Source: Amoebophrya sp. A120
Taxonomy: Eukaryota > Protista > Dinoflagellata
NCBI GenBank assembly: GCA_905178155.1
Contig: CAJINV010000014.1
Coordinates: 1,953,888 to 2,017,887 of the forward strand
Direction: 5' to 3'
Length of the DNA stretch: 64,000 nt
The translations under genes and the position numbers were made by a program. The notes beneath the pieces are model-generated. The model had not been told where the DNA came from. It did no database searches and worked only from the letters and a program-made list of their open reading frames with translations. Below, piece after piece: positions 987-64,000 of the stretch; the stretch's first letter is position 1, and the number at the start of each line of letters is the position of its first letter.

Positions 987-3900
987 TCACAGGAGGAATA
1001 ATCCCGAACCGGAAGCGCCAATTTGTCCCTTTGCCAATTGTTTGTACATCCGGGTGATATCTGCTTGCTCCAGGTTAATGTCAACAAAACTCTGAGTACT
1101 AGTATCGTCTTCATCTTCATCGTCCTCCATATCCGTTTCCCCCTCGTCGGTAATCTCCTGCAGCTTCTCCTCCAAAACCTTTTCACAACCGCTTAAATCG
1201 ATCAGCTCCTGTTGGAAAAATTCCAAACTCACCGGGTTGTGGGCCCTGAAAATGTTGACCTCCGGCTTCTTGAACGGAATATGGAAGCGTCAGGATTGAA
1301 ATCCTCAAAGTTCAAATAATTTCTCATGCAGAAATTGCAAGGCATGAAGTGCCTCTCTTGCAGGGATTGCAAATGAGGCCGATTGTGAGCCTGTTTCGGG
1401 TTTGGAATAGAGCTGCCAAAGTAGCATGACAAAGGGCGCCTTCTGTCCCTAAACAGCATGACAGACTGGCTTTAGACGGTGCCGAAATTTGTCATGCGCC
1501 GCTGGGAAATTGGGCTTCCAGCTGGTATCCGTATCGCTTTTATGCATTACAAATAATTTCAACTTTGACGATTTCAATCCTGACGCTTCCATACGGAATG
1601 CCCCACTCGTAGTAGACGTCGTCGAAAGAGAGTTTGTCATCTTCGTCGTCTTGTAAAGCTACCTTCCACGGCTCCGGCATGAGTGCGAGGATAAGCTCTG
1701 AAGTGTTGGCAGAAGTTGAGGTCGTTTTCTTGTCGATGTAGTCCGCGGTGAGAATCTCAGCGAGCGTGTAGGAGTTTTGCTTCTGCGGCTTGGTCGTCGT
1801 CGGTGCTGCAGTATCGATAAAGTTCTTCTACTTTTTGAAGTGAAAGCAAATGCACAGCACTACAGGAACAGGATTGAGTTTGGACACGACAAAAATTCTC
1901 TGACTATATTACAGCTGCTTGTCGTTGTCGAGAGACGAAGCCATAGTATTAACTTACACAAGAAGACATATACGGCACCGGTTCTTGCACACATAGATTA
2001 TTATCTTACCTTTCGCTTCGTCGTCGTCTCCCTCGATCTCCATGATGACATCCCCATCTTCATCATTTTCCGCTGGTTTTTTAGGCCCCGCAGCGCTAGT
2101 AATATCAGAAGTTCCTGGCAGCTTATCTTTCCCGTTCTTCCCCAAGCGACGACCTCCTGTCTCCCAATCGTATTCATCTTCGCTATTCTGCCCCAGGTTG
2201 ATCGCCGTTAAAACTTGGCACATTTCCTCTCCAATTTCCCAGAAATCCAGATCCGCCCGCTCCGCTTGCGTCAGTCCTTCGTACTTCGCCTCCCTCTCCT
2301 TCTTTTTCGCCTCGATCTTCATCTTTTTCGCTTGCTTCTTCAGCGCCGCCTTCGACGGACGAAGATCGCGGCCTGCCCTGCTGTGGTCCCGTCGGCTTCG
2401 ATATTTCAATATCTTGCGGTCGTGGTCACGGTCGCTGTAATTGTACCGATCCCGACTATGATATCTCCCATCTCCACGACCTCTCCTGTCGTTGCTCCTC
2501 CACCCGCGCTCTTCTCTGCCACGGTCACGATCTCCGCCTCTATGTAAAAATTCGCGATCTCGGTCGCGGTCGCGGTCCCGATCGCGGTCACGATCGCGGT
2601 CACGATCGCGCTCCCTGTCCCGATCCCTGTCTCTGTCCCGATCTCTGCCGCGAAGATCCCGGTCTGCTCTATCACGATCCCTATCCCGGTCCCGGAGATC
2701 TCTATCCCGATCTCTGTCCCGAATATCTCTGTCCCGGTCTCTATCCCGCCGGTCTCGGTCGTAATCCCGGTCTCTATCTCGGTCGTAATCGCGGTCTCTA
2801 TCTCGGTCGTTGTAATCCCGCTCTCTATCTCGGTCGTTGTAGTCCCGGTCTCGGTCCCACCGATCGCGATCACGGTAGTTGTCCCGGTTGCCTCGGTCTC
2901 TTCTGTCCCTTTCCCGTTCCCTGTCGCGATCTCTCATGGGATGATCCCAGTCCCTGGGCCGGAAAATCAGTGGAGAGGCGTTCGGGGAACGAGCGCCGAG
3001 CTTGATACTGTTGGCTCCTAGCACGAAGCTTGGAGGAGCTTCCTGCTTTCTCAATGTCGGCAGTTGCACCGGAGGGGGCGCGACCGCACCTTTTTTCAAA
3101 GTCGGTAACTGGAACTTCGGTGCAGCTTTGGGCCTGATGTCCTTGATGTGAAGGGCTCCTGCGGCAGTTGTAGATGCAGACAAGAACTCCGGCACGACCA
3201 CCCGGGGGGGAGAGGCTGCTCTCATTTTGTTCGCCCCAGCCGACACCACCATCGGCGCTCGATCATTGTTCCGACCGTTGTCCCTGCTTCCTTTCGGTGA
3301 TGAAGGCCGTTTCAAACCACCAGCGGGAGGAACAGCTGGTCTTAATATTCTCGGGGATGAAGCTTCTTTTTCGACGCGAGAAGGTGACACTTGTTTCTCT
3401 TTCTTCAACCAAGGGCGCGGTATCGGTTCAGGGGAAGGCTCTTTCTTTCCACCCAGAAGTTCTTGTTTCGATTTGTCGTGCACCTGCGGTGCGATTTCAA
3501 CCGTCGGACGGTCATTGACGCTCTTCTGCAAGAAATCCGGTAGTGCTAATTTTCCGACAGCTTTACTCGACGCCCCATCGGTGCCAGGTTTGTACTTGTC
3601 CTCTCGCAGGACATTGTTCGGCAGCACCATCTCTGAAGAGCGAATCCCTGCAGCACGACCAGATGACTTGTTTTCCCGCCTGCGAAGGTAAGTTTCCTTA
3701 GCAACACCTCCTCCATCCCGATCATCTTCTCGGACCCTCCCGGCCCGTCTTCCTCGGGATTCACTTCTCCGTTTGTATCTGTAAGAGCGATCACCATCAC
3801 GATCACGATCTTCTGCATCAGAAGCAAAGGTCCGCTTCAGTGGAGCAAAATCACGCAGACAAAGACGGTCTTGTTTCTTATCGCCGTCCGGGCCCGGGCC

Positions 3901-6900
3901 CCTGTCGTCCACGCGACGAGCATGAATGCTTTTCCGTGGTTCAGCTTTAATATCCTCATGACCCTTGGCCGTCGTGTAGTTGTGGTTGCTTCTTCTACCA
4001 AACACCACGCGCTGTTCGCCGGAAGAAGGCGCAGCATCTTTTTCTTGTTCTAGTTTTTTATCATCTGTTCGCGGCGGAGCAGGCGGTCGAGGAGGTCGTG
4101 ATGGATGAACATCAACATTTTCCGCTTTCTCGTCCTCTTCACTGCAGTCTTCAAAAGTCAACTTGCTCGACGTCGTCTTCCCGGGAAGGCGGAGACAGCC
4201 CCACTTCGTTTCACGACCTTGCTGTCCTTCCACCGCTTTCGCCGCCCTTTGACTTTCTATCTTCGCAATGCGATCGCGTACGGAAACGGTTGCGCCCGGA
4301 ATCATATCATTGTTCTTCCTGTCTCGGTCACCTGGTGCACCAGAGTAAATGTTGTCCTTCTTCGCATCAAGGAGCGACTTGTGATTATCTTCGACTGGCT
4401 TCATATTCATCTCTTGGTCCCTCGTCTTCTTCCCGTCGGAAATTCTAGGTTGATCGAAACTTTTACCGCTAATACCTTTTCTTCCACTTCTACTGCTTTC
4501 GTCCTTCAAATCATCATCTTCCCTCGGACTTCTATCGCCGAAACCCGTCTCCTTGCCGAACTTATAGTCGCCCAGCGCGGGCAGCTCCGAATACTCGGAG
4601 TACTTATCAGACTCTGCTTCTTCTACTTCTCTTTGCCGATTATTCTGGTTGTTTTTCATCTTTTTACTTTCGACGTTGTCAACGACTAACTTTTGTTGCT
4701 TTTCTACCGCAGAACCTGAAGATGCCCGCCTCTTCCGGTCACGATCTTTAATATTATCCGGCGGATCCTCATGCTTGATTACCGCCTTACTAGTGATTTT
4801 TGATACTGCTCCTACTTCTCCTTTCTCCCGCAGAACTTTATTCTCTTTGAAACCCTGCGTCTGATCTTTTTGATCCGTTTTGTCGACCATACTATCGCTG
4901 TGTTCTTCTTCAACATTGTCGCTGTGTTCTTCTTCTTCTTCAACAGATTCCTCTACAGCCGAAGACGAAACCGCCCCGCTGCTGCTGCTCACCTGGGATT
5001 CGTCTTCGTCATCATCCGACGATACTGCTTCATCTTCGTCGTCGTTTTGGGCCGTCGTGTCCCAAAACTTTATCTCCGCAAGCCGTCGAGGATCGGGATG
5101 TATTGGTCGTGGTAGTTGTTGATGGAAGCGGCCCCGATCAGATTTCTTCTCCGATGAACGACGTCTACCGCGCATCGTCGTTTTTCCTGGTCGTTTTTTT
5201 TCTTCTCGTTTTTTTCTCGATGAACGCTGCTGCTCCAATTCATTTTCGTCGTCATCCTTATCGTCCTTATCAGGACTGGTAACGATCGGCTCCCCATAGG
5301 CAAAGTCGGAGTCGCTCTCACTTTCACTCTCTTCCGCTTCGTCGTTCGCAGCGTCTTTATTTCTTTGGGAGTTTAGTACTTTTTCTCTTTCTGGACGACG
5401 ACCTTTTTTATTATTTTTTCCATCTTCATCCTCCACATCTTCCATTTCAACGTCCCGGCTGTAGTTGCTTGTTCTTTTCGGTCTTTTCGAGCAAGGTCCT
5501 TTCGCTTTCTCTACTACAGACGTACGCCTAGTTTTCATCGCCCTCGCGGCCGTATCAACATTTTTATCTTGTTCCCCGGCCTCCTGCTCCTCGGACTTCT
5601 CGTCCTCCGAGTGAGCAGACGAGGACTCCTGTTCAAGAGCAGGCGAATCCTCGGGCAGCAACAAAGCTCCATTTCGACTGCGCGGCTGTGGTTGATGCGG
5701 GGGTCGGATCGGTAAGATTTTGACGCTTGGACTATTTCTGCCTTCTGGAGTTTTTTTCTGCTGCTGTTGCTCTTTTTTCGCGTTCTTCTTGTTCTTTGCG
5801 GTAGCTTCTCCTTCTTTTATTTTTTCCTCGTCCGAATCATGCTGAGGATTATAACTTTCGTTCGACCTACCAGACAGCGATGACTCAGAGTTGTCGTTTT
5901 CGGAGATGATCCGCCCGTTACGGAGGGTATGAAAGTTAAAACAGAGGCCGCTTATTCCCTTGGTATTCCACTGTATTGCGTCGTGTGTGTAGGAGTAGGT
6001 CTAGGTCGTGTGCGTGTTTTGTGTCTAGTACGAATGACAAAGCCATCAAATTCGAACTGCACTGGAGCAACTTTCTTTCGAAGATGACAAGGTGCAACAG
6101 AGATTCCTCAACAAGCGAAGCACTGCAAACTACCCAGGGACGAGCGGCCTTCAACATTCTACCGATCTCATACCGCGAGTTTGCCCCTTGGTAGTTCCGT
6201 GGCGGGCGCTGGGAAGCGGCGATGCGCTTTTCTACTGGCTCCTCTCCTGGCTCCTGGTCGTCCACTTCTTCATCGTGCGCTGCCTCTAATTCCGCCTCCT
6301 CAGAAGCGGCTTCGTCCTCGGAACCGGAAGGGCAAATGCAAGGAAAAGTAAAGCGCTTAAACTTCTTTTCAATGTCAACGCTAGAGCATATTCCGAATGC
6401 TGGGGCCGAGAAGATGAAAAATATCACACAAATACATGATTTTCTGATGTGGTTTTGAAACAAGATGTTGTGATGCACATTAAAACCCTTCACTCGTGCT
6501 TCGATTGGCCCTGCGGGAAGAAAAGCTAGCTGTTTTACTTGTCCTTCATCATCCTAAATTGCTGCATGCTTTCCTCTTCCTCTTCGTCCTCAGAGACGCT
6601 GCTTCGATATTCCGGACTGTAATCCCTCAAGGCTCCCGGGATGATCAGCATGGGCGCCGGGGGAGGAGCGGGAGGATCTCCTGCGCTGGAACTAGCCGCC
6701 TGAGCAGAAGAACCTCCACCAGGACATGCGTTCCGAAAATCGCGGTCTGCCTGATTGACATGGTGAGACGACTGCTGCTCTGGGCTGTTGATTCGGTAGT
6801 TGTCCCTGTTGTGCTCCTGCCGTTGTTGGGCTGCAAACACTTCGCTGCTGCTTTCCGGGGAGGACTGGAAGTACTTTTTATCATGACGGCCCTGCTGCTG

Positions 6901-7672
6901 CTCTAGCAAGCGTCTCCTGTTTTGCGTTGGCACAGGACGCGAACGACGATGCTCACGAAAATCGTTATCTTCCGACCGCTCCGGCGAGAGTTCGTAATCA
7001 TCCTCGCCGGAGGAGTGCTCGGAAGAAGGCAACGCGGCCCGGTCATCTTGATGTTGCAGCACTCCCGCCCTTGCAGGAAGAACTCCCGCACGACCGCCAC
7101 CACCCGGATCGTTCTGACCGCCGGGGCTGTTGCTCCGGCTGCTACTGCCGCCCAAAGCGCCACTTCGATGCGCAGCAGGGCCGGGGGCTGACCTGTTCAG
7201 ACCGGCAAACAGGCTATTGATGGCTTGGTGCCCGCCTTCCTGGTTGCGCACAAATTGCTTTTTGATTTGTTCTATCCTGTGCAAAAGTATCTGTATCGTG
7301 CGGCTCGTGCTACATTGAATATAGGAATTGCAATAGCTACTTATTTGCGGTCGTGCATGGCCACAAATCTTGTACGTACTTCACGCGCAAATCAGCATGA
7401 CGACTACCGCTGGTCCTTCTGAGCAAAACTTGTTCCATCTCCAATGCAATAGCTACTACAAGAACTACGATATTTTTGCAATGCATATCTTGCTGGTTCT
7501 GCGCAGACGAGAAGGTGGAAGAGGATGGCATGGGTAGTTTAAACGCATTCGCCGCGAACTTCGTGTCAAGCTTCTTCTTTTTCGGCTCAGGATGTGCATC
7601 TTCCGCATTGGACGGGGTGCCGTTCCGTCGACGGCTGCACGCCGACGATTCAGACGAGGAGCCGTCACCCAT
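987..7672 (-). CDS. Large low-complexity hypothetical protein with Arg-Asp (RD) repeat region (SR/RD-rich, possibly nuclear); multi-exon
   Basis: ORFs 7337-7720, 6535-7284, 5936-6493, 1954-5664 and 987-1232 join in frame after removing elements 7273-7487, 5928-6172 and 1280-1593 (+5 nt each) and a GT-AG intron at ~1807-2009. The junction at ~6333-6538 and the start codon are unresolved. Confidence 0.7.
1280..1593. mobile_element. Introner-like TIR element, family A
   Basis: TIR TATGGAAGCGTCAGGATTGAAATC...; TSD CGGAA (1275-1279/1594-1598); removal gives EWGIP|FKKPEV. Confidence 0.95.
2555..2935 (-). repeat. Coding RD/RE dipeptide repeat
   Basis: Translation DRDRDRERDR... inside ORF 1954-5664. 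Confidence 0.9.
5928..6172. mobile_element. Decayed introner-like element
   Basis: TATG...CATA ends, residual TIR (AGGCCGCT..TCCCT.GGTA), TSD lost; removal +5 nt gives ANSR|RNGRII in frame. Confidence 0.6.
7273..7487. mobile_element. Introner-like element, family C (aged)
   Basis: TATCCTGTGCAAAAGTATC...GATATTTTTGCAATGCATA; TSD TGTTC/TCTTG; removal gives NQQE|IKKQF. Confidence 0.8.
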
Positions 7673-10600
7673 TCGGTATGCAAGGAAAGAGAGGCAAGCT
7701 ATTTTTTCGAACAACTGCATTGTTGCTGTCCATGTGTGTAAAGATGGCCATGAATCATCTGTCCAATTTCAGATAGACCGGGGTGAGCAAGTTCCCTCGC
7801 TCTTAGACTTCTTTTCGCTTTTGCATAACCTCTAATCGTACTAGCTACAGCACCTCATCACAGTCGTCGTAGCAGCTTCCTTGTCGACTTGGCTGAAAAT
7901 TATCCAGGATTACCTTCACGAACAACAAAGACATGTCATCATTGGCGCATGCTCCTATCGGCTCCTTGCTTCGTGATGATGATCTATCGCCCCAACATTT
8001 CGAACATTTTTGATGTGCTTCTAGTTGTTGGAAAAGATTGGAGCTGCAAACTCCGCCTCTGTATGGGATTCTCTGGATAAGTGAAAAAACCCATCATCTT
8101 TTGGTGGTCGTGGGTCGCGTTTCGACGTTATGGACGCTGCGCTTCCAACATCTCGTGTTGTCTTTCCCCTCAGGGCCGCATTTCCGACAGAAAGGCAGTT
8201 GATAAGTCCTCTCGCAGGTCGCGACCCTCCTCCTCTTGTCGTTGTCTTTCCTTGCTGTACCTCCTCGACAGCCGAGGACTCCGTGGGGGAGCGGTTATTG
8301 AAAAGACAAGACTAGCTAAAGCGGCAACATTTCTGCAACCCTACAGTGTCAGAGAGGTAGATACTGATATCGCCTGAGAAAGAGGAACAACAGCGCTTCA
8401 GGAGATGAAAAACTGCTTTCATTGGAAAACTATTTTTACCCCGAATGCTGCAACAAAACACAGCTTCCGCTGCACCTGATTTTCAAAAGAAAACATATGC
8501 CATCAACATTTTGATTTTGAGCCTGTATGAAATACAACGCGACCTGTTCTGCATGCTGAAGCTTATTTTCACGGCTTGAGATTGAGTTCTGCTTTCAGAC
8601 GACTTGAAATGCCAAGTCACGTTCTTGCACACCATCAAAAGCATGCATCTTATCATGTTTTTATTGCAGCGGGCCGCCAGTCTTTTCCTTTTCGAAACGC
8701 TCATCACTGTCACTGAACTCGCCCTTTTTCGATCGGAGAAGGCCGGCGCGTTTAGGTGGCATCCTGCAACTCTACTGCGACTTGTTGAGTTGGAAAAGAA
8801 GCGAATCAGCTGCAGGCCAGCGCGACCAATTCGATCTTTAACGGCACCTCGTCGTACCAAACGCTCTACGCTAAGTATTTCCAGACGCGACCGTGCTGTA
8901 AAGAATGCCCGAGCAGCTCTCGACAGCTCGCCTGACAAAACCCCACTTTGATGGCGTGACGTGGTGGGCGGGGCACAAGAGTTCTACTTCTAATTCTTCG
9001 CTGCTTTCGACAAATTCATCTGTAGCTTTGTTGCCATCAATTTTTCCTCCATGATGCGGGAGAGCAGCAAAGTCCCGATCAAACTCAGTTGTCCTGGTGG
9101 TATGGGTAAACGCGGCTTCTTGTGGTCTTCGTGGTGGTTCGCTCCGCCAGAAAAATGTCATCAATGTGCTGCGCCGAAAGAAACGTGTAAAGACGGTCTC
9201 AGAAGCTATGGTCGTTGAGGTTGATGCGTGTCCTTGCGAGCTCCTCGTCACACGAAGAATTCAGGGTAACCGCACTACGTTTGTGCGCGCGTCCGAGGAT
9301 AAATTTTGGTTATCAACAATCGGAAATTGCATGTGTGAGCAGCGGGGAATCTTTTTCGTGTTCTACTTTACCCATTAGACGGACAAGCAACTTTGATCAA
9401 GCAGCAGATGAAGCGTAGAGAGAGATAGAGACACAGACAACACCCACTCTCGCTTCTTTACATACCACATCACTGAGGCTGTTGATATGATGGAGTAATA
9501 GATGTGGCGGCAACAAATTATCATATCTATGGCATCATCAATAAAATAAATGACTGAGACTGATCACGACACACAAGAGAATCTGTCATCGCTGCTGCAA
9601 CATCGGGGCTCGAACCAAGGGAACGGTTAAGGATCGACGAGTATATCGATACATACAAGCTACCCGGCGGGCGGCAGGCGACGGCAGGCGAGCACCCACG
9701 GAAAATGCGGCGACGAAGAGATAACCGCGCTGAGCAGCGCTCACTCCACGCGCGCCATAAGCACAAGCGCGAAAATATATATGTATCAATTGAACAAGAG
9801 ACGGCCGCGGCGCCGCGCCATTGCTTGGCTGGGCAGACGGGGCTCGGGCGTCTGGCTACGTACTGTCTGACACACAGGCACCATACGCGCGGCGGCCCGG
9901 GCCATTCGCCCATACGTAGGCCCGAGCGCCGCGCCCACGCCTCCCTACGTGGGCGCCTTTCCACGCCCGGCAAGATCAAAACACCAAACCGGACGCAGCC
10001 GCCGCGGCCGCCGCCGGCCCAATTGGCCGGCGGCACTGAAATCGGCGCGCCTGACTGCCCTGATGCAAACAACCGGGGGGGGGGGGCGCGGAAGGATACC
10101 ACCCGCCCGGCGGACGCGCGCCCGCGCAGGCAGCAGGGCCATGGGTGCCGGCCCAGCCTACCAGCCAAGGAATGGCGCCCCTCGCCCCCCCCGGCGCCCA
10201 AACAGGCCTCAAAGCAGGGGCCCACCCAAACAGCAAGGGCGCGCCACTTACAAAGAACGAAGCCCAAGGCAAGGAAGCACCCGGGCCACCGGCAAAAGAG
10301 AAACACCAAAACCGCGCGCCACGCGCGCGCGCCGTCTTCGCTTATCTGCGCGCGGGTTCTCGGACCCCCATCCCCCTTCGTTTTTAACATCCGCAGAGCG
10401 CCCCGGCGCGCGCGCGCCTCCCGACCTTCGGCAAGCTCTTGGGGGTAGAGAATCATAGCCGCGCCGGGGGGCCGCGCGCAAACTTTGCGGACTCATCCCC
10501 GCGAAATGTTAACCAGTCACCTGGGCAGATCGCGCGCGTGGCGTTTGTTTCTGACCAATCAAGACGGCGCGTCAGGCGGACCACGTACCACCTACCGGGG

Positions 10601-11204
10601 CCAAATTCTCCGAGAGGTCCCGCGTTTCGCTTTCCGCGCCGACGCCTCCAAGGCGGGGCGGCTTCAGGCCGGTTCGGAGGCGCGCGGAGTGCGGCCCTGC
10701 ATACGACTCCGCGCGCGCTGATATGGGCCCAGGTCGACTCCTCTACGGAGCCGCTTGGGAGCTTGGAGCAGGTCTGTCGAGATTGAAGCCGCCCCCTGAA
10801 GCAGTTTTATCGAGATCGAAGTGGGAAAGTCAGCCGCTATTGCCAAAAGCGCCCGCGCCTCCCTCCCCAGGCGCTTGCAGGCCGCGACGGTGGGCCCACC
10901 GACAAGAGGCGGCGCCGCTCTGCGGAGATTCAGACTGTTTGTAGAAAAATAGTCACGACAGGCGAAACATGTATGCGCGGCGTGCTTCATCTTCTTTCGA
11001 AATTCATGGAGCGAACACGTCGAATGTTGATGGTTTGCGCGTCTTGCGCTGCGCTAGAGATCAGAAATCTACGTGCTCATCCTGCAGCGCGCTTTGTGTT
11101 CATCAGTCGCAGTGCGACAACTTATCAAGTTCGCGTCGTCCTCACCTCACTTCGTTGCCAGTGCCTGTTCGACATTTTTCTCGCTCACGAAACAACAAGC
11201 GCCA

Positions 11205-14831: not shown

Positions 14832-19075
<4,244 letters not shown>

Positions 19076-20745: not shown

Positions 20746-23700
20746 CTACATTCCCGGTGGCAGCGGTGGGGGTGGCGGGATGCCGCTATCTTCCACGGCG
20801 TCGCCGACGTCTTTCGTTTTCTGCTTTCTCACCGGCTGCTGCATCGCCTGCTCGCGCAGGTTCTGGGAGACCACTAAATTGTTGATCAGGCCCTGGCGCG
20901 TGCCGACCTTCGAACTGAGATCCTTCTGCCTCTTGCGTGAAAAGTCGCGCTCGTGCAGCTCTGCCTCGGTGATGCCCCACATATCGTCGAGACGTTCGAG
21001 AAGCATCTGGGTTCATGTTTTGTTTTGGAATGAAACGCTGATGAATAAAAAGTAGTTGCAAAAGAACAAAACGCGAGGGAGTACACTGTATTAAGCCCTA
21101 AAAAATGCATCTTTGCGTGACGGCTGCAAAAGGTGAGCGACACGACGCCGAAAAACAAATCATACCTTCGTGATAGAAACAAAAGAATTTGCAGTTTCTT
21201 CGAGAAAACATTTACGCGCAAGTCCATCAAATTCAAATTAGACAAACAAAGCGATACAAAATAAAAAAAAAAAAATCTTTAATACATCCGCCTGCTGAAT
21301 AAGTTTATCCGCCTGTCCCTGCAAGTTCATGGCCCTTCTGCTTGCTCTCTGCACGTACGCTAATAGTTGGATCATATCGCCTCCTTGCGCGGGCCCCTTC
21401 ATCTTCTGCACACCCACGATAAACTCATCGACGGAGAGAGATTGAGAATTGTCCACATCGAGGAGGAAAAACAACTCTTCGGCCTGATAGTTTTTGTTTT
21501 GTCCGTAGGTAGGGTTCTAGTGTCGCATCACAAAAAATTTATTTCATATAGTTCAAGTTCTCACGCTCGAAAATAGATCAGTAGTGCTAGTGCAGGACAA
21601 AAACAGGAAATACTAAGAAAATAGAAATACGTCCTCCAACGGCAGCCCAATAATTTTCAACTTCGACTGGAAGCTTTTTGTTCTTATCGCTTCGCAGAAC
21701 TGCTCGAAGTTCAGCTCCCCGGTGCTGCTCGCGTCGGCGAACTCCATAAACTCGATTCGCATGGAATTCATGACGCGCTTCTCGCACTCGAGGATGATGT
21801 TTTGCACGTTCTGGTCGTTTTCCTTTGCGACGAGCAAGGTTCGCTCGACGATGACACCGATAATGACGTTGAGAAGACCAAAGGAGCACAGAACGATAAC
21901 GATGAGGCATAGGACGACAAGGGAAACATCCTGCTTCATGGACGTATGGAAAGGGAAACATGCTCTTCTTGGTGAGGGTGATTCAACTTGTTTTCATGTG
22001 TGAATACCATTCACGTGAACGGTAATACACATGATAAGCTCTCTCTTGATGTTGATTCCAGCCTGCTGCATAACATAATACACGATGGTATGGTAGACGA
22101 TTAAAATATTAATGTACCTCATACACCACAATACCATCGTGAGTAACATCTTGCGCGACGGTATAATGCGCGTCTGAAAAGCGACAAGTCAAAATCATTA
22201 GAAGAAACATGTTTCACTATCGTAAATTGGCCTGACAATTGACCCCGACCAGGATTCCAACGTGATAATCTGTCGTGTGATGATTGATGTGGAATAGAGT
22301 TAGTTTTTCGACGGAATTAATACGTTCTTTTAATTTGCAAATCCAACCCAAGCAAAACAGAAAAACTTTTTACCTGAAACACGGTGAGCATGGCTCGTGG
22401 CACGGATCCTACATAGACATCCATATCTGGCCAGTGGTTTTTGAATTCCTTGACACTTCCTACTGCGATGACTAACAGCACCCCGATCGCGTAGCAGACG
22501 ACGAAAAGTAGAACTGAAACCCAGAAAACGGTTACCAGCGATTCGTAGAAACCTTTGATTTTTTTTTTGTGAAGTTGATCTCTGACCGTGTTGTAACCCA
22601 CCACTACCAAAAACAAAATAAGTACTGTGTGCTGTTTGTCTTCAATCACATAGTGTAACTATAATTGTTGCTCCGTCGAACAAAAATTTAGGAATCTAAA
22701 TCAAATACCTTTCACAATCGTCCACAAATCCCGGAACATCCTGAGCAATCGAATCTGTCGCACCACACGGAGCATACGCAACATACGGAATGCGGTAATC
22801 ACCTTCATCTCACCCTCGCCTTGAAACATGAAGCGCACGACGATCTGATTTGTAGACAAAGCTAAAGATCATTGCATTTTGGGATAACAAAGTACAAATT
22901 CGTTGTGATTAGGCAAGTACAGCCTGTGCTGCATGACATTGCATTTTTGCGGGAGCCTCACAAAAAAGAAAACAAGTGATCTATTCAGTACATCCACAAA
23001 CCCGAGCACAACGAGATGGTAATCCAGGATGTTCCACGGATCCAGGAAGTATCCCCACTGCAGCTATCACAGGAAAAAACATTGTAGGTGTAATTTTTTT
23101 GGAGGAACAGCATTACAAATTTGTCTGGCATGACAGCAAAAACCTGTCATGCGCAGATAGTACGGGAAAACGCCCTTTGGTGGACCCTATGACGCATGCC
23201 AAGAATGACAGACTCAATCACTTTGCGCGTTGCGCGTGACAAATCTACACGTAACAACGTTTTTTTTTTTGGATAGCAGCAGTTGTAGTTTTATTATCAT
23301 TTCCGCGAGAAAGATCGCCAGAAAGCAGATCTCGAAGATGACAAAGATCAGAGTGTGCTCCAGCTTGTCTGACTTTGCCGTGTCTACCTCCAACCCAATC
23401 ATGAAGGCGTTGAACACAATGGTGAACGCGACGAGGGAGGTCAGGTATTTACTGTTCGACGGGTGTTTTTGTCTCGCCATCAGGTCGTGCGTGGTCATCA
23501 CGTGCATCTGCTGGAAAACCGATCGGAACTGCTATTACAGTGAAAAATGCCCCCCGCCCCCAAAGTCGCAAAAATTTGTGATGCGAAGTTTCCAAATGAA
23601 AACTTTTTGTCATGCATGCAAGAAGTATGAATCTTTCCGATGCAGAGTCTAGGCGTGTATCGCATCGCTTGCATGACAAGCGCCACCTTTGCTGCGGTCT

Positions 23701-24161
23701 CTTGCAATACAAATTTTTGCTATTCACGATTGGAAATCTGTGATGCTGATAGATGCAAGAAGGCGGATGTTTCATGCATACAAATGAAAAGGTTTGCAAT
23801 GCAAATGCCCCCAAATTCGGGGGTGGGGGCATTTTTCACTTTGATAACTGCCCGGTGTGCTCTATCATCTGGCCATTGGCACCGTTACCGTTGGCGCCAT
23901 TGCCATTCCCGTTCGGCGCCTCCCCGCCATTGCCGCCGGATTCGGCGGGAGCTGGTTTTTTTTTTTAATTTTGGAAATGTTTCGCATTTAGAAAAGAAAA
24001 GCTGGCTCATGCCGTCCTCTATGTGTGCCGAGGAGATGTTGAAGCAAAGCGTGTAGTTGATAGTTGTTGTATCTCGTGTAGTTTTTAGTCCTGTTGTAGA
24101 AAGCCCAAACATGATATACATTCGTACCTGTTGAGCTCTTAGCCTTGCTCGCGTCGGCCAT
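20746..24161 (-). CDS. Single-domain (6TM) voltage-gated Na+/Ca2+ channel with TLESW filter and C-terminal EF-hands
   Basis: S2-S3 YFLDPWNILDY, S4 FRMLRMLRVVRQIRLLR (~22740-22795), pore VFQ|IITLESWSGSIVRPI (22225-22269), S6 LLNVIIGVIVE, EF-hands DASSTGELNFEQF and DVDNSQSLSVDEF; several GT-AG introns plus three introners. Confidence 0.9.
21945..22224. mobile_element. Decayed introner-like element
   Basis: Residual TIR (GAAACATG.T.(C)TTC); no in-frame GT-AG solution found; removal +5 nt gives IVRPI|MKQDV. Confidence 0.65.
23065..23275. mobile_element. Introner-like element, family E
   Basis: TATC..poly-A-C(A/G)TTGT TIR; TSD GCAGC; 211 bp and similar to 40000-40210; removal gives LQLL|QWGYFL. 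Confidence 0.95.
23533..23846. mobile_element. Introner-like element, family D-like
   Basis: TIR TAT.A.AGTGAAAAATGCCCCC; TSD ACTGC; removal gives HTGQ|FRSVFQQM. Confidence 0.95.
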
Positions 24162-25159
24162 TTTGTTTCTCTGGTCGGCGCGCGATTTGAAGAGAGCTCA
24201 GGTCTGCGGGCGCAGCAGCGGTGTCGATTCAGCAGGAACTTTGTCTGTAGATTTCCGTCTTTCGATGAACTTGGTTGAATATCACTACCACGGTAGTGAA
24301 AATTCCCCGGCGAAGTAGTTCTTGTGGGACAAGCTGCGCGTTAGCGTGGCCGTCTGCGCTTGCGCGGCGACGTTGAGGTGAGTGCTGACATTATCCTTTT
24401 TAATGTGTAGCTCTATGAAGATAAAAACGCAGGAGAAGGTGAGGATCTACAGCTTCGAAGGCATTTTTTATTGTTCATCTCTCTCTAAAAAACGTCTTGC
24501 TGTTTCGTTTCTCAGGGTTGACGAATTATGACATGCGAAAAAAAGATTGGGAGGTGGATAACTTGACGAGTAGAACAAGAATAAGAGACGACAACGAGGC
24601 TGGCACATTTGAGATTCCGCAACTTCCACATTCCCTTGATGTTCCTTCGTCCTCTATCGATAAAACATTCCACTTGCGCTCCGTGTTTTCGTTTTCGACA
24701 AACTCGCTCGCGAAAAATCATATTCGTTCACAGCTCTTCACTTAATAGAATCAATCTCGACCTCTTCCCTCCCTCACAATCTCTCTTCTCGTCCCTCACA
24801 ATGCGACTAACAGTGCTAGTGCTACTGGTGCTCTACTAGTACTCCTATCTCGCTTCGTATTCGTTCTCCTCTCTCACGTCGTTCAACGAGATACGTGCGG
24901 GCGACATTTTTGGGATCTGTCACTTGCCAGGCCAGTGCATCAGCAAGCCAGAAGCATACTGTGCGAGTCGCGCCTTTGATTTTGCCTCGCTTGTTAATTC
25001 TTACTTGCTCATACAACCATATGCGACGTTCATTCGTAGACAAGACAGTCTGATGAAACTGAAACAATTTGTTCTGCCGTGCAGGTGCAGTGTGGTCATT
25101 CAAATAGACGAGATTTTTGCATAATATATAAATTCGTACAACGCTACTTGTTTACTTTC

Positions 25160-57000: not shown

Positions 57001-60000
57001 CTTCTCCAACAACCGCTGAAACTTAATACCGTCCTTCACGCCCTCGACGGTGTCCTATGGCAGTGCAAAACTTCGTCCCCTCCCCCTCATTTGTATTGCA
57101 TGAACAGCAATACAAACACCAGGACACGTGGTGGAGCCTGTGCATGACAAATTCACGCGCCTACTGTAGTATTGTTTGGGCTTCCGGAATGATCTGTCAT
57201 GCAAATAGTGCCACAGCAGGGACGAAGGACTAGACTTGGATTCGGTAGTTTGCGTGACAAATGAGGGGGAGCAGGGGGAGTTGTGCACTGTCATATGTCC
57301 CCCGCCTCCTTGTGCAGGTCCTCGATCAGGCTGTCGCGCAACAGGTCGGGTCGCAGAAACTTCTCGTATTTCGCGCTCTTCATGATTCGGTACCGCTGGT
57401 TATGGACGTGTCAGGATCGAAATCGACAAAACCGAAGAACTTGTGATGCATAAAATGTAAGGCACTGAAGGCCTGTATTGGGGGGCAGGCAAATGAGGCC
57501 GATTGCAAGCCTGTTTAGGGGTATGCAATGCGCTGCCAGAGTAGCATGACAGGAGCAGTCTTCTTTGTCCAAACAGCATGAAAGACTGGATTTGGGTGCT
57601 CCCGAAATTTGTCATGCGCCACTCGGAAACTGAGTGTGAGGCCCCAACTGGTATCGATTTTATGCATCGCAACTTTTTTGATTTTGTCAATTTCGATTCT
57701 GACACTTCCATACTGGTTGGACAGCTTCTTCACCTTCATCGCCTTGTTGAACATGATTTGGTGCATGAAGGCCAGCTCCGCCTCCCCCTCCCCCTTGATG
57801 GCGACGTATTGGTCTATGTCCCGCTCGTCCTCTTCCCCCTCCACCATGCTTTTCGACGTTTGCCGGGTGTGTTTCCAGGCGTTTTCGATCTCCTCCGTCA
57901 CGTCCGTTTCCACCATCATGGCGATGTCGGGCTTCTCTTCGAGCAAGTGCGCCATGCGGTTTCGCTCGTTGCGGTACACGCTCGCGGCTTCGAAGTACAT
58001 CGCGTCCGCGATTCGTTTCCAGATCGATCCGCACTCCTGCGGCTTCAGTTTCCAATCCGAATTGTCGACCTGCCGCTCCAGCACGTCTTCGGCCAGCAAG
58101 CGAGTATGAGAGTTGTACACAACTCCCCCTCCCCCTCATTTGTATGGCATGAACAGCAACACAAGCAACAGCGGAAAAGAGGCTTTCGCATGACAAATCT
58201 GCGTGCAGATCGTAGTACAGTTTGAGGTTCCAAAATTTGTCATCCTAGCAGTGCTTACGAGCACGGTGTGAATTTGGTACTTTGCATTACAAATGAGGGG
58301 GAGGGGGAGCTGTGCACTCCCATACCGGGCCTGGAAGATGTCGAACAGCCCCTTGTTGGTGCCCCGTTTCTCCGCCGCCAGAACCTCCCCAGCGGAGGGT
58401 TTTCGCCCCAGTTTCGCCTTCAGGCGCTCCGTGAGCAAACGGTCCTGGTACTCCGTTTCGAGCGTGTGCACCTTCGCAGGTTTTGTGTACTCCTTGACCA
58501 GGACATACTCCATGGCCCGATGCAGCTCGCTCATCAGGTAGCTCTTGGGAAGCTCCACGTCGCCGCGGATTAGGTCGCCGCCGATGTACTTGTTGTGTTT
58601 GAACTCCTCGGGGGTGTCCTCCGTCTCGGTCAGCGCCGCCTGTTGGTACTCCAAATCCGCAGCCAGGTGCTCCGTTATGTGGCCCGCCGCCATGCGCACG
58701 TCCATGCCCGCACGCTGATACAGCCGGCTCTCCCCGATATTGCCGCCGCAGGCAGAGTGCTGGTCGGTCTGAACCATAATGACGTACTCCGCCACCTTCT
58801 TCCACTCCACCAGCGCGATTTCGCGGAGCAAGTTGGTGGCGGTCCACCGGTCGCGGGTATTCAAATTCGACTGCGGGTTTAGAAACATGTCGTCGCGCAG
58901 TTCCTGCTCCGGGGTTGTCTCCCACGAATAGTTGTCGGCGTAGTGCGCGAGCCAGTCCTGACTGAAGTCTTTGTGCTGCTCCATAAATTTCAAAATAAGC
59001 TCGCCCTCGACCTCCTCCGCCTCTTGGACCCTCTCCGCTGGGACTTTACTCTCTCTATGCCGTGCGACTAGCCGCATCTCCTCGCGCTCGGTTGTTCTGC
59101 TCTTCAACTCCTTCATTGCGGAGGTCTTTTTACCTTCCTCGCCCTGTTTTGTTTCTTGTACTTGTTCCTCTTCCACAGTGTGTTGAAGCAGAGACGAACT
59201 GGTGCTAGTTTGTGCTCCTGCTGGGGGAGAAGATTCATGCTCATCTTGTTCCAGCACATGATCAGGACTCCGACTTCTTGTTGATTTCCTGGCATCAGCA
59301 TCTGAAGACGCCGCTCGACGCTGACGCCCCCGCTTCCGCTTCTGCCTCATGGCTTTTTGGAGGAGAACCTTCTCCAGCAGCTGAGACTGAAGCTCTTTTT
59401 TCTTTGCCGTTTTTTGTTCTGCGAATGATGATGAAGATGATGAGCTAGCTACTGATAGCGACCTCTCCTGGGAAGTAGTTCTGCTTCTACTTTTGCTCGT
59501 CCCGCCCGTTCTTCGCGCCAATTTTTGATGATTTCTTGCCGTTTCAGTTTTAGTTTTTGCCTCCCCCACCTGCAGCTGGGAGGACGTGCTGGACGTTGCT
59601 CCCGCTTGCATATTTGTGTCTACTTCTAGTACGCTGTCACCAAGGGAGGTACTACTCCCATCTCCGCGGCCAGAAAGTGCGTCGTTTTCGGTACTGCTCC
59701 TGGCACCGGAAGATTCTGATGACAGCTTTCCCAGTGGTTCGGCTAGTTCCTGAGATGAACCTTGGACACCTGGCGCAGAAGAAGTAGCGGCAACCGCTGG
59801 CAGCTTGTGTGCTGTCGTAGATGTTGACATCGTGTTGGTCTTCACGTCAGTTGCGCTCCTACCTGATGATGTTACTTTTTCTACGGGTTCCGGAATCTCC
59901 TTCGCGGCCCCTGCTTCATCTGGTACTGCTCCTCCTACGAGAGATGTAGTTGACAGCTCTTCTTGTTCTTTCACCTGCAGCATGCTCGCAGCACTGGAGC

Positions 60001-63000
60001 TGCTAGAAGTTGCGCTACTCGCAGCAGCAGCGGCTGCTGCTTGTGCTGCGCCGTTGGCTTGATTCTCCAGATCCTCTTCGTGCTGGCGTAGCAGCTCTTC
60101 GCACTCCGTGTCGCCCGGTTCGCATTCTTTCGTGATGACGTTTCCATCTTCGTCGACGTCAAGGTCCGCAAAGTGGTAGTAGAGGTCGCCGCCCTCTTAT
60201 CGCAAGAAAAAAATGTTTCACTGTGAACCTGTGACGCAGAGAACGAAACACCAAAGTGTTTGTCTTGCTACACCTGCAACGCAATGGATTTTTAAGCGTG
60301 TTTTCCCTTGGTAAACGCGCATGGCGAACTTTCTGTATCATGTGTAGCACACTTGTGATGCAGATCTTGCAAAACCATCACAGTGAAACAGTTTTTTCGT
60401 GGGATACCTCTTCTAGCGCTTCCAACTGTTCCCGCATCTGCTGGATCTCCAGCTCGATATCCCGTTCTCGCACCTTGTCGCTCAAGTGCTCCGCCTTCAG
60501 GATTTGTTTTTGCAGAATTCCCTCGGTCTTCAGATGGAACGCGTAGTTATACCGCATCTCGTCTCCGTAGATGTCCTCCATGATGTCGCGAAATTTCTCC
60601 GCGCGGAACCGCCTGGCCCGAATGTACTCGTTGATCCTCTCCTCGGCGGCCAGGAGCGGGATCTTGGGATGAATGTTCCCGTCCACCCCCGACACGCCGA
60701 GCTTGTCCGTGGTGAGCTTCGACGTACTTAAATGGATGTCCTTATGGATGTGTCAGGATCGAAACCCTCAAAGTTGAAAGAGTTTGTCATGCATAAATCC
60801 GATACCAGTCGGAAGCCCTTTTATCAAGCGGCGCATGACAAATTTTCCTATCACCGGGATCCAGTTTGTAATGCTGTTTGGTCCTCACTGAGGACTGCTT
60901 TTGTCATGCTACTTTAGCAGCTCTATTTCAAACCCTAAACAGGCTCACAATCGGCCTCACTTGCCATCCTGGCAAGACAGGCACTTCATGCCTTGCATTT
61001 TATGCATGGCAAATCAAAATCATTTCAACTTTGTCGATTTCAAACCTGACGCTTCCATAGTCCTTGCATGTGCCCCAGGCGGCATCTTCCAGGTCCTCCA
61101 GGGTGGCGGAAGTCAGGTCCTGCAAAAAGTTCGCGTTGTGGTCCGTGATCTTGCTGCCCACTTCCCGTTGTCGCAGTTCGTTGATGTTCCAGGTGGCTAG
61201 GCGCTCCTTCTTCTTCCGCTCCTCGTCGATGTCCGACAAAATTTGCCCTTCGTTCCGCATCTCGTATCGGTACCCGAGCACCGTGTCCTGTCCCGGCTGC
61301 GGCAAACACTCGTCCGGTGTGAGGAACATGAGAAACCGCAAGTGCTCCCGGATTTTGGTTGGCAACACCATGCCCACCGCGGCAAAGTAGTTGCGCGTCG
61401 CGTCCGCTTCCCGCGCCGCCTGGGTGCGGCCCTCGCGCCGGGTGCTGGTTATGCTGCCACCCGCATCCCCACCGCGCTCGTACCGGTCTACCTTGGTGTA
61501 TGACCGGAGCGGGTCCAACAGAATGAACGCGTCCCCGAACATCGTGTCCCGGTACGATGTGGTGGAGTCCTTGCCGCCGAAGAGGCGTCCGCTCCAACTG
61601 TTTGCGCCGCTGTGGGCCAGCAGGTCTGCCCGCAGTCCCAGAGCGTTGGTGGTCTTGGGGAACTCAGATTCCTCCACATCCTCATCCAACAGACCAGCGT
61701 CGTTGCTCGCAGGCAATAGTTTATTTTTCGCAGCTGCTCTTGTTCCTGTTCTGGCTCTTGCTTCTTGCTTCGCCTCCTGCTGCTCCGACGTCGTAGAAGC
61801 TGCAACTGCGTGCCGTCGTGCCACTCGTCCGCCCTCGCCTACCTTCATCATACCGGAAGCAAGACCTTCCCTTGCCGTTTGATGCTTTTCCATATTTTTT
61901 TCCATTTGTTCCTCGGTCCGCTCGCCCGTCTTGGACATTTGGAGAAACGATGAAGCAGAGGCAGCAGTAGAACTACTCGACGCGGCGCTGGAAGACGACG
62001 AGAGAAGTCCACTCCCTTGCTCAGCCTTGGTCGCTTCCGCCTTCATTTTTCGCTGTTCCTTGTACTGTTTTACGAGTTCCATCCGCTTGTCCTTCGGTAT
62101 CTGAGTGACCCAATACTTTTCGAGTTCCTCTTTTCGTTTCTCCACCTCGTCGGTGGCAAGTTGACAGAATTTGTCGTTCTCCAACTCGTATGAACTGCAA
62201 AAGTATCGTACTCGTACAAATGCATATACAAATTTATTTCTCAGCATCATCATCATCATCATCATCATCATCATTGAGAAATAAAATTTGTAATGCGGAT
62301 TTACCTTAATAAGACAAAGATTTGTAATGTAAGACTTGCATTATATACGAATACGATACTTTTGCACAGGATAACTCGCGTCCGTTTTCGAAAGAGCAGA
62401 CCTCTGCCCGCTTGTCGAGCCTCTCTTGCAAAGGAGCGACTCCTATCAAATGCAAAAATGTCTGGGTCTGGAAGAGTTGGAACCTGTGATGCAAACTCTG
62501 GAACACGCAAAAACTTTTGTTGCGTGAGCGCCAAAAGCTGTCCATTTCTTGGTCCGCAAGTAGGAAGTTTCTGATGCGGGACAGGCATCATGAGGCGTGC
62601 TCAAAACCTGTGATGCTTTTGCCTGCATCAGACGCCATTTGCGTGATCCGAAATATGCATGACAAATCTCGTAATCTTCCAGACCCAGACATTTTTGCAT
62701 TTGATAACTCCTGACTCCGGTGCTCCCGGGTCGGCCTGTAGCCACTCTTCTGGCGGCCTCAAAGCCTCCGCTTCCAACGCGTCCATTTTCGCGCTACCAT
62801 CCTCGGCGTTTTCAGAATTTATGCATTGCAATTATCATGTAGTTGTTACATGGGTGGTCTACAACTTTTAGAAGTCTATGTTGACATTCGCATTTTTGCA
62901 ATAGAGTGGCCCGCCCTTGTTGTAAGTACGGTAGAACATCACCAGCATCAGAAGTTTCGCGGGCCGCCTATTCTTGCTGATTCATACCTGAAGGAGCGCG

Positions 63001-64000
63001 TGTATAATGACAAAGAAGTGCCATCAACCTCCGATATTAAAAGAATTCTTGATGGCCATGCATCAATTATCGCATCCATGCGTGACAGCTCTAGGTCTTG
63101 TTGTCCTTCAAATCTTGTCGCGTCACGAATTGTATTGTATCCAGACCCGGACGACAACTACATGTGTGCAATGCATAGCGTTGGGATCCTCGCCATTCAG
63201 GTGCTTCACGTCTTTCAGCGCTTTCTCCTCCCACTTCTCCATGATTTGTTGCGTCTCCAGCGCTATCCTGTGCAAAAGTATCGCACTCGTATATCATGCA
63301 GTCACGAATTACAAATCTTTCTCTTAAACTTAAGTTAAATCAGCATTACAAATTCTATCTCTCATGCTGAGGAAATTTCAATTTGTAATGCATTTATACG
63401 AGTACGACAATTTTGCAATTCATAAGCGCGACCGGGTCCATCACGGAATCTTGGGCGTAATAGGTCGACAGCAGCATGGGCAGTGCCTCCTTGGATTTTT
63501 CCTTGACCTGCTCTAACAGGTCGTCCTCCTGATCTCTTTCCCACCCCGTATCGTTAGAAAAAATCGGCCCTCCCCATATCGACAAGGCACACCTCAGAAA
63601 ATTTGTCATGGTGATTTGTAGCCACAAATCGCATCTGTGATGCAAGAAAGCAACGCCACAGGCTCCGCCCAATGGTGCAGGCGGTTTGTAATGCTGTTGG
63701 GCCTGCTACGGCATAGACGTTCCTCATGCTAAGTGCCTAGGCCAAAACCTCTCGACTCCGGCACGATATGGGCCTGCAGTCCTCTACTGCAAGACAAATC
63801 TGACTTGTGGACGCAAATCCGGCATCACAAATTTCGTTTCGATGTGGGGAGGGGGGATTTTTCCTTGTGATACCCCGCTTGCCAGAACCACGAGGCCCGG
63901 GTTTCCTCGGCGTCGATCGAGGCCAGCAGCTGCCGTTCCGAGGCCATCGCAATCTCCCCGGCACTATGAACTGCAAAAGTATCGTACTCGTATAAATGCA
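54064..64000 (-). CDS. Very large hypothetical protein (>2050 aa, 5' end outside window) with one C-proximal TM helix, interrupted by 16 introners
   Basis: Removing 15 complete elements +5 nt each from 54064-63959 leaves 6177 nt (divisible by 3) and each junction translates in frame; TM-like LLFCVLFAIGLWLALVSVL. Confidence 0.85.
54426..54583. mobile_element. Introner-like element, family C
   Basis: TSD TCTAC; removal gives WCSR|SRTAIN. Confidence 0.95.
54679..54837. mobile_element. Introner-like element, family G
   Basis: TIR core AATTTCCCGC.CA.G.ACAAA; TSD GGAGA/GGACA; removal gives LALVS|VLRTCF. Confidence 0.85.
55913..56064. mobile_element. Introner-like element, family C
   Basis: TSD AGCCC/AGTCC; removal gives DEED|YYHDDD. 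Confidence 0.9.
56122..56403. mobile_element. Introner-like element, family H (D-like ends)
   Basis: TIR TATCCTG.GT.AAAACGTCCCCACCCCATAGT; TSD GCGCT; removal gives IKQR|VGFVIP. Confidence 0.95.
56476..56779. mobile_element. Introner-like element, family A2
   Basis: TSD TTGGA; removal gives MQSN|LIDMQV. Confidence 0.95.
57056..57295. mobile_element. Introner-like element, family I
   Basis: TIR TATG.CAGTGCA.AACT...CTCCCCCTCATTTGT; TSD TGTCC; removal gives EAGD|TVEGVK. Confidence 0.95.
57401..57712. mobile_element. Introner-like element, family A
   Basis: TSD CTGGT; removal gives LSNQ|RYRIMK. Confidence 0.95.
58105..58324. mobile_element. Introner-like element, family I
   Basis: TIR core CTCCCCCTCCCCCTCATTTGTA; TSD GCGAG/CCGGG; removal gives FQAR|LLAEDV. 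Confidence 0.9.
60198..60406. mobile_element. Introner-like element, family J (GT-AG compatible)
   Basis: TIR TATC.CA.GAAAAAA.TGTTTCACTGTGA; TSD CCTCT; removal gives ALEE|GGDLYY. Confidence 0.95.
60743..61059. mobile_element. Introner-like element, family A
   Basis: TSD GTCCT; removal gives TCKD|IHLSTS. Confidence 0.95.
62189..62373. mobile_element. Introner-like element, family C, with (CAT)10 expansion
   Basis: TSD ACTCG; removal gives NGRE|LENDKF. Confidence 0.95.
62444..62706. mobile_element. Introner-like element, family B
   Basis: Perfect TIR TATCAAATGCAAAAATGTCTGGGTCTGGAAGA; TSD ACTCC; removal gives ESGV|APLQER. Confidence 0.95.
62820..63177. mobile_element. Aged (B-like) introner-like element
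   Basis: TIR TATGCATTGCA...CATGTAGTTG; TSD GAATT/GCGTT; removal gives EDPNA|ENAED. Confidence 0.8.
63264..63424. mobile_element. Introner-like element, family C
   Basis: TSD AGCGC; reverse orientation relative to 62189 and 55913; removal gives PVAL|ETQQI. Confidence 0.95.
63549..63872. mobile_element. Introner-like element, family D
   Basis: TSD CCCCG; reverse orientation relative to 16352-16673; removal gives WQAG|WERDQE. Confidence 0.95.
63965..64000. mobile_element. Family C element, truncated by window edge
   Basis: TATGAACTGCAAAAGTATCGTACTCGTATAAATGCA. Confidence 0.85.

Follow-up and report, generated by a model that had tools for sequence, protein, structure and literature searches.

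How can an intron be cut precisely when its borders carry no recognisable splice signal? The question is raised by a 64,000-nucleotide stretch of the dinoflagellate Amoebophrya sp. A120 (contig CAJINV010000014.1, positions 1,953,888 to 2,017,887; hereafter the window). Its exons, which are 100% matches to NCBI proteins of this organism, are interrupted by short transposon copies without coding capacity, which have inverted ends (TAT...ATA) and 5-bp target-site duplications (TSDs). These are the published introners of Amoebophrya A120. An earlier note, made from the letters of the window alone, had correctly stated that introners with terminal inverted repeats (TIRs) and direct repeats were already reported in Amoebophrya (PMC7789003; PMC12130899; papers are cited here for the portions covered by our search). 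Farhat et al. (2021; PMC7789003) described A120 introners with inverted repeats of TAT + 7 nt + AAA, direct repeats of 3–5 nt and 29,850 copies; the portion covered reports no clear splice signature and no transposase in A120, and states that the position of the intron border 'remains unknown'. A 5-bp repeat is already in print in the legend of their Figure S19. Here we show that the elements are removed at the RNA level together with exactly five further nucleotides, and we argue that the cut very probably falls one base before the element and four bases after it.

Anatomy and number of the elements

Elements were sought as TA...TA pairs with at least 12/20 complementary terminal positions and a flanking 5-bp direct repeat free of mismatches. 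The scan had 31 hits in the window and none in any of three controls simulated with a Markov model. Genuine elements of 153–358 bp account for 27 of the 31 hits; the other four are weak (12–13/20 complementarity) and were treated as chance pairings. Eight more elements have one or two TSD mismatches (7273, 26599, 38309, 46052, 54679, 55913, 58105 and 62820; that at 38309 was found by reading, not by the scan), six are decayed (5928, 6335, 7677, 8296, 48872 and 50894) and one is cut by the window end at 63965, giving 42 in total. The earlier note had the same counts of perfect, mismatched and truncated copies and fell one short among the decayed ones (five, for about 41 in all). Its statement that all are bounded by TA...TA holds for most, but conservation extends to TAT...ATA, and the decayed copies at 6335 and 8296 depart from TA...TA (mRNA sense: TAG...ATT and TTC...ATA, respectively). 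Clustering of 37 window copies gave 11 multi-member clusters and seven singletons, close to the 10 or so TIR families proposed before.

The same families occur in a second assembly, JACKZZ01, from a metagenome scan, in which 68 loci (425 kb) hold 302 elements with best identities to window copies of 74–94%. Filtering left 282 elements with a TSD of at least 3/5, 276 with a frame and 206 confidently oriented; 65 have imperfect TSDs, L011 and L018 being one site counted twice. An exact 5-bp repeat flanks 194 of the 302 elements, a 4-bp repeat two and a 6-bp repeat none. Inward positions 11–13 are A in 160, 176 and 226 of 243 elements, more weakly in the largest family, and the TIR of Farhat et al. 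(8–20 nt, TAT, 7 nt, AAA) is present. Being short, TIR-bounded, TSD-flanked, without coding capacity and high in copy number, the elements answer to the description of miniature inverted-repeat transposable elements (MITEs); in DNA-like contigs (X1), depth summed over elements far exceeds that of their flanks. The larger families are inserted both ways (29/26, 22/21 and 22/12 among 243 oriented elements). The end patterns had no match in viral contigs or prokaryote genomes, and an Rfam search gave no match.

Lengths of element plus five favour none of the three phases (12/12/13 of 37). The 12 copies that remain in phase have stops in every frame, so retention would break the genes. A simple coding model placed 33/33 coding segments on the minus strand. 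In 12.8 kb of intergenic sequence we saw no element and only two hits to the internal motif described below.

The elements are removed from RNA

Assembled and read runs were compared over positions 44001–64000; X1 is DNA-like, and contigs X3–X6 are RNA-like, a label given by guess and by behaviour. In a large gene at the end of the window, single 10–11 kb contigs (X3, X4 and X5), with shorter X6 pieces, skip the 15 complete elements from 54426 to 63872, and at 15/15 of the RNA-contig joints listed the skip is exactly the element plus 5 nt, as the earlier note had predicted. Splicing gives this gene an open frame of 2,058 codons, against 686 for the longest unspliced one. In the lists below, k is the number of letters of the downstream TSD copy kept in the mRNA (mRNA sense).

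54000–63960, minus strand: large gene, 15 complete elements, low end approximate; 10–11 kb contigs X3–X5
54426–54583: element, perfect TSD; RNA joint skips 163 nt (158 + 5)
54679–54837: element, TSD 4/5; RNA joint, k 0–3
55913–56064: element, TSD 4/5; RNA joint, k 0–2
56122–56403: element, perfect TSD; RNA joint
56476–56779: element, perfect TSD; RNA joint
57056–57295: element, perfect TSD; RNA joint
57401–57712: element, perfect TSD; RNA joint
58105–58324: element, TSD 3/5; RNA joint, k 1–3, the RNA lower bound on the register
60198–60406: element, perfect TSD, GT..AG readable only at k = 1; RNA joint
60743–61059: element, perfect TSD; RNA joint
62189–62373: element, perfect TSD; RNA joint
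62444–62706: element, perfect TSD; RNA joint
62820–63177: element, TSD 3/5; RNA joint sets the upper bound on the register from RNA (k −1 to 1)
63264–63424: element, perfect TSD; RNA joint
63549–63872: element, perfect TSD; RNA joint
63965–64000: element truncated by the window end; RNA contigs depart from the window sequence at 63965

The earlier note had allowed for removal at the DNA level instead. Such excision, before transcription, might resemble that of the internal eliminated sequences of ciliates or be precise and transposase-driven. The TA-bounded ends would suit such a process, and the samples behind X1 and the RNA-like runs differ, perhaps in life stage. However, X1 contigs, although of a kind that loses rare variants, continue through exon/element borders at single-copy depth; X1 depth is even at 40–50, intergenic DNA included, with 0 other letters. 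Contigs without elements also break off at a GT-AG intron border, where one piece starts exactly (46907), and their depth varies between genes in an mRNA-like manner. RNA-seq validation of such introns was also reported in PMC7789003. These data make excision from DNA highly improbable, and that part of the earlier proposal is set aside.

In the raw-read runs X9 and X10, no exon of 44001–64000 was covered at 90%. X9 does contain 450 + 94 loose-ended reads at 56476–56589 and 49807–49864, which represent one end of the largest family. They join a flank absent from the window and correspond to the element end of a relative, unspliced, in abundant RNA.

Beyond the large gene, element+5 removal reproduces annotated proteins at 21 further junctions, at four of which the junction itself was used to place the element ends; the proteins used were P0001, P0002, P0003 (thioredoxin reductase, TrxR) and P0123. 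At the remaining five complete elements, +5 gives the longest open frame among +3 to +7. The earlier note had claimed restored frames at conserved TrxR and channel motifs. For TrxR this is borne out, since four junctions in the catalytic domains align without indel to seven homologues (from A25, Perkinsus and others); the ion-channel exon matches Ion_trans only weakly (E 6e-4, short of the curated cut-off). A 19-nt micro-exon (16679–16697) within the conserved SSDDIFW stretch of TrxR is flanked by the elements at 16352 and 16698. That it is kept indicates that adjacent elements are removed without mis-pairing.

14832–19075, minus strand: thioredoxin reductase gene, five elements and four GT-AG introns; P0003
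16352–16673: element, perfect TSD, in TrxR; scan, P0003
16698–16961: element, perfect TSD, in TrxR, separated from the preceding element by a 19-nt exon; scan, P0003
17165–17317: element, perfect TSD, in TrxR; scan, P0003
17390–17747: element, perfect TSD, in TrxR; scan, P0003
18533–18840: element, perfect TSD, in the TrxR N-terminal extension; scan, P0003
1280–1593: element, perfect TSD, largest family (~310 bp); longest frame at +5
5928–6172: decayed element, TSD 2/5, TAT...ATA intact; intron 5924–6173, P0123 k = 0 or 1
6335–6556: decayed element, TSD 0/5, TAG...ATT; intron 6331–6557, unique P0123 junction, ends assigned post hoc
7273–7487: element, TSD 3/5; P0123 allows k = 0 or 1
7677–8079: decayed element, TSD 1/5, TAT...ATA intact; intron 7673–8080, TT..GA, unique P0123 junction, k = 1
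8296–8696: decayed element, TSD 3/5, TTC...ATA; intron 8292–8697, P0123 range includes k = 1, ends assigned post hoc
23065–23275: element, perfect TSD, ion-channel-like gene; scan, longest frame at +5
23533–23846: element, perfect TSD, ion-channel-like gene; scan, longest frame at +5
26101–26368: element, perfect TSD; scan, longest frame at +5
26599–26748: element, TSD 4/5; longest frame at +5
34591–34900: element, perfect TSD; scan, P0001
36381–36645: element, perfect TSD; scan, annotated protein
38309–38614: element, TSD 4/5; P0001 requires k of at least 1
39659–39910: element, perfect TSD; scan, annotated protein
40000–40210: element, perfect TSD; scan, annotated protein
46052–46425: element, TSD 3/5; P0002 k ≤ 1, RNA piece ends at 46045
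47809–48124: element, perfect TSD; scan, annotated protein
48190–48484: element, perfect TSD; scan, annotated protein
48872–49138: decayed element, TSD 2/5; P0002 k 0–3, RNA piece ends at 48867, hence k ≤ 1
49559–49864: element, perfect TSD; scan, annotated protein
50894–51220: decayed element, TSD 3/5, TAC...ATA; intron 50890–51221, CT..CG, P0002 requires k of at least 1

Register of the cut

A cut within a perfect repeat could lie at any of six or more positions; a mutated repeat reveals the copy kept in the mRNA. The RNA joints at four such sites allow k values of 0–3 (54679), 0–2 (55913), 1–3 (58105) and −1 to 1 (62820), and the sole value common to them is k = 1. Contig pieces ending at 46045 and 48867 are compatible with k ≤ 1. 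Annotated proteins rule out k = 0 at 38309, 50894 and 7677, and k ≥ 2 at 46052, 7273, 5928 and 7677. The junction at 7273 had been picked beforehand as a place where the upper bound might fail, and P0123 has Glu there, matching k ≤ 1. P0123 also exposed previously unrecognised old copies: for intron 7673–8080 the only solution is T-TAT...ATA-CCGA, with a repeat of 1/5 and k = 1, and introns 6331–6557 and 8292–8697 conform once degenerate ends are allowed post hoc.

Overall, k = 1 is allowed at 13/13 testable junctions, and no other single value fits all of them. Given that the junctions at 7677 and 50894 have neither GT nor AG, they do not reflect a pull of the annotation toward canonical ends. 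The 14 imperfect-TSD copies examined have T at +2 in 14/14 and ATA at −7 to −5 in 13/14. Across 168 perfect TSDs, +1 and the last four intron bases are free, and only six give GT..AG at the k = 1 register. The intron register is thus very probably N-TAT...ATA-NNNN (mRNA sense), with a cut one base before and four bases after the element; since 1 + 4 = 5, every insertion would be removed without trace. We found no earlier description of this register in the literature searched, which left most subscription papers and all figures outside its scope.

Several observations limit or weigh against this reading. Just one RNA joint excludes k = 0 and one k ≥ 2, complemented by the two contig piece ends; contigs X3–X6 stem from two samples of one study, and the gene models behind the annotated proteins were built from BLAT-aligned transcript assemblies. 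When the 65 imperfect TSDs of JACKZZ01 were scored with a coding model, position 5 favoured the upstream copy in 7/10, contrary to k = 1; bootstraps of the same set found k = 1 best in 1,088/2,000 and k = 5 in 689. One JACKZZ01 locus yields a stop under k ≤ 4, possibly the gene's own. TSD position 5 is G in 65/168, matched by C at position 1 in 56 (p = 0.39). The balance between these two positions leaves no sign of selection for GT, and selection for GT or AG in the TSDs was not borne out. Finally, the legend of Figure 3 in PMC7789003 has splice sites varying relative to the hairpin.

Alternatively, the spliceosome might remove the elements from RNA in no single register, the cut sliding within the direct repeat copy by copy. 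Variable sites are described in the legends of both Figure 3 and Figure S23 of PMC7789003, splice modes in Dataset S2 of PMC12130899 are inconsistent per family, and the JACKZZ01 test is weak for k = 1. However, aligners report sliding inside perfect repeats anyway, k = 1 is the one value shared by all testable window junctions, and at a junction with intact ends (7677) it is the only solution. We therefore regard a sliding cut as improbable and retain the N-TAT...ATA-NNNN register.

How the cut may be made

The earlier note had named junctions at nearby GT-AG sites as one observation that would speak against its rule. GT..AG can be read in any register at only one of the 15 RNA joints listed (60198); the GT-AG borders of the U2 type are otherwise lacking there. 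Nevertheless, with the testable junctions fitting one register, we lean toward a U2-type spliceosome that is relaxed about the +1 G and the terminal AG, and consider it likelier than a separate nuclease and ligase. The element's first TA would serve as U+2 and A+3 of an ordinary GUA donor, with any target base at +1; the 3' cut would be measured 4 nt beyond the terminal ATA, with no scanning for AG; and the hairpin would help to join the ends in young copies.

The spliceosome makes use of U+2, which is the basis of our donor comparison. U at +2, a feature of U2-type donors, is found here as a consequence of the k = 1 register, and 11/13 ordinary donors of these genes carry A at +3. In Table S4 of PMC7789003, the nine predominant non-canonical sites in A120 are all NT-NN and the nine in A25 all TT-NN, and A25 elements begin TTA (PMC7789003). 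U+2/A+3 thus holds for A120 and A25 alike, even with stems whose starts differ by one base, a pattern more easily explained if the donor is read as sequence than if it is set by the geometry of the hairpin. The same paper reports a near-complete Amoebophrya spliceosome in which U1 was not detected.

Alternatively, the hairpin base might be recognised, the cut made in the same register and the exons joined outside the spliceosome, by an endonuclease and a ligase or by a second, specialised complex like that proposed for euglenids. Strong end pairing is predicted in most young copies, removal is independent of orientation, and +1 and the last four bases are free; in addition, the TIR introns of euglenids are released as circles and form no lariats (review PMC11282704), and U1 was not found in Amoebophrya. 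However, end pairing is predicted to be poor or missing in several old copies that are removed all the same, and five of these (6335, 7677, 46052, 48872 and 50894), with 0.0–2.1 expected end pairs, hold the same register. The invariant U+2/A+3 is that of ordinary donors and recurs in A25 at another stem offset. We consider a nuclease–ligase less likely.

The relaxed spliceosome faces difficulties of its own. Table S4 may partly reflect an aligner that favours donor-like positions within perfect repeats. Folding predictions put the donor of most young copies into the paired stem, so it would need unwinding. No lariat, branch point, small nuclear RNA pairing or enzyme was observed in the material, which consists of assembled contigs only.

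Ordinary introns were inspected for a branch A at −7. By eye, a candidate A is present there in 8/13; an ab initio intron predictor recovered only 4/13 known introns, and its 227 predictions lacked a −7 signal. The 13 GT-AG introns of P0001, P0002 and P0003 have T at donor position +5 in 9/13 and G in three, and their 3' ends are A-rich, with no polypyrimidine tract. One GT-AG intron (50058–50285) has the layout G-TAT...ATA-TCAG with a flanking repeat of 3/5 and no inverted repeat left; it is possibly an old element turned canonical.

A shared internal motif

All families contain the motif GCA-T/A-G/C/T-ACA-A/G-A/G-T. Its core, GCA[T/A][G/C/T]ACA, is present in 28/28 elements tested, with 110 strict hits in 7,372 nt versus 21 elsewhere in the window, many of which lie in old elements or introns. 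A position weight matrix gave 980 hits in 60 kb of elements versus 30 in 78 kb of coding sequence. The strands are used equally (469 sense, 511 antisense), 27/243 elements have no sense copy, and spacing is 31–33 nt in 259/739, about three helical turns, copies within a family not being independent. The motif has been lost from 5/14 old copies whose introns remain annotated as removed. We rejected it as an obligatory RNA signal or branch point, as it shows no strand or 3' bias (Wilcoxon p = 0.22) and is missing in old spliced copies. Given its strand balance and its loss from old copies that are still cut, it looks like a mobilisation signal, likely a DNA-binding array that links families with unrelated interiors to one enzyme. 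No earlier description of the motif was found in the literature searched, beyond which lay most subscription papers and all figures.

The combination of TA..TA ends and a 5-bp repeat points to the integrase-like Ginger/IS3EU-GingerRoot clade. Spread could be explained by one trans-acting DDE transposase of this kind, which would bind the TAT ends and the motif array and insert with a 5-bp stagger. Two observations argue against this assignment: no transposase or autonomous element sharing these ends was found in the window or in the 425 kb of related loci, and the TSD measures 5 bp where IS3EU usually has 6. Long TIR-bounded copies in JACKZZ01 (650–1,320 bp) showed no obvious transposase frame by inspection. 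Three long copies (L004:505–1608, L042:7011–8136 and L027:2077–2724) have family ends, perfect 5-bp repeats and repetitive or GC-rich non-coding cargo.

The earlier note had proposed one shared machinery for all families. Shared ends and a shared internal motif agree with this, but mobilisation and splicing appear to use different signals, so that two machineries are likelier than one. Tentatively, and with considerable doubt, the whole may be pictured as a spliceosome for which neither G+1 nor AG matters: U+2/A+3 alone would define the donor, and a fixed ruler starting at the terminal ATA would place the acceptor (possibly with the branch at A −7). It would act alongside one Ginger/IS3EU-like transposase with motif sites spaced by 32 bp. 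Insertions would then be born as perfect introns, in any target and either orientation.

Relation to known systems

The A120 introners of PMC7789003 share with the present elements the organism, TAT ends, direct repeats, RNA-supported removal and many families; host, TIR, 3–5 nt repeat, non-canonical RNA removal and repeated families were all recovered here. In contrast to the single register and common motif found here, the portion of that paper covered mentions no shared motif and argues against general mobilisation by a transposase. Gozashti et al. (2025; PMC12130899) list most A120 families as 'TIR DNA, Unknown' in the 38/58 rows of Dataset S2 covered, and those A120 rows hold conflicting splice modes, TSD calls of 2–6 bp and no unified register. 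Their families resemble ours as 150–320 bp TIR DNA elements. One, fam38 (808 bp, integrase-like homology, 'Ginger; 5-bp TSD, TA/TA Termini'), was matched by description only.

IS3EU/GingerRoot elements (Kojima, 2023; PMC10045372) have TA..TA termini as here but usually a 6-bp TSD, whereas an exact 6-bp repeat occurs in 0/302 of our elements; the 4–5 bp TSD of Ginger2 in the same source is compatible with 5 bp. Euglenid nonconventional introns and those of Fritillaria borealis (review PMC11282704) are likewise MITE-derived, with TIRs, TSD-like repeats and non-GT-AG ends; the Fritillaria introns are spliceosomal and the euglenid ones possibly not. Euglenid introns pair CAG/CTG at +4 to +6 and −8 to −6, whereas the pairing here is TAT/ATA at +2 to +4 and −7 to −5; neither CAG/CTG pairing nor pyrimidine|purine junctions were found in our elements, whose border bases are free. 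The Fritillaria ends are AG-AC/AT after an exonic TAC, in contrast to the free terminal bases here. Algal and dinoflagellate introners that co-opt TSDs (Gozashti et al., 2022; PMC9860276) also place splice boundaries inside the TSD and restore mRNA length. They recruit a real GY or AG from the target, unlike the elements here (6/168 perfect TSDs with GT..AG).

Other observations in the window

Past the annotated end of TrxR (14832–14843, minus strand), where P0003 ends at Cys, the frame reads Asn-Cys-TGA-Gly-stop, which we take to be the Cys-Sec(selenocysteine)-Gly tail of selenoprotein thioredoxin reductases. At 2555–2852, 298 nt bounded by GA..CG within an Arg-Asp repeat are missing from P0123; this is probably an annotation artefact. 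GC-rich (64–67%) intergenic blocks at about 9700–11000 and 30200–31000 differ from the surrounding DNA.

Implications

Where and how tens of thousands of such introns are cut was left open by PMC7789003, in the portion covered. If true, a fixed N-TAT...ATA-NNNN register would explain the missing splice signature and permit genome-wide re-annotation of junctions. The shared motif offers a bait for finding the missing transposase. Splicing without G+1 and AG, if true, would bear on what the active site of the spliceosome needs and on how transposons turn into harmless introns.

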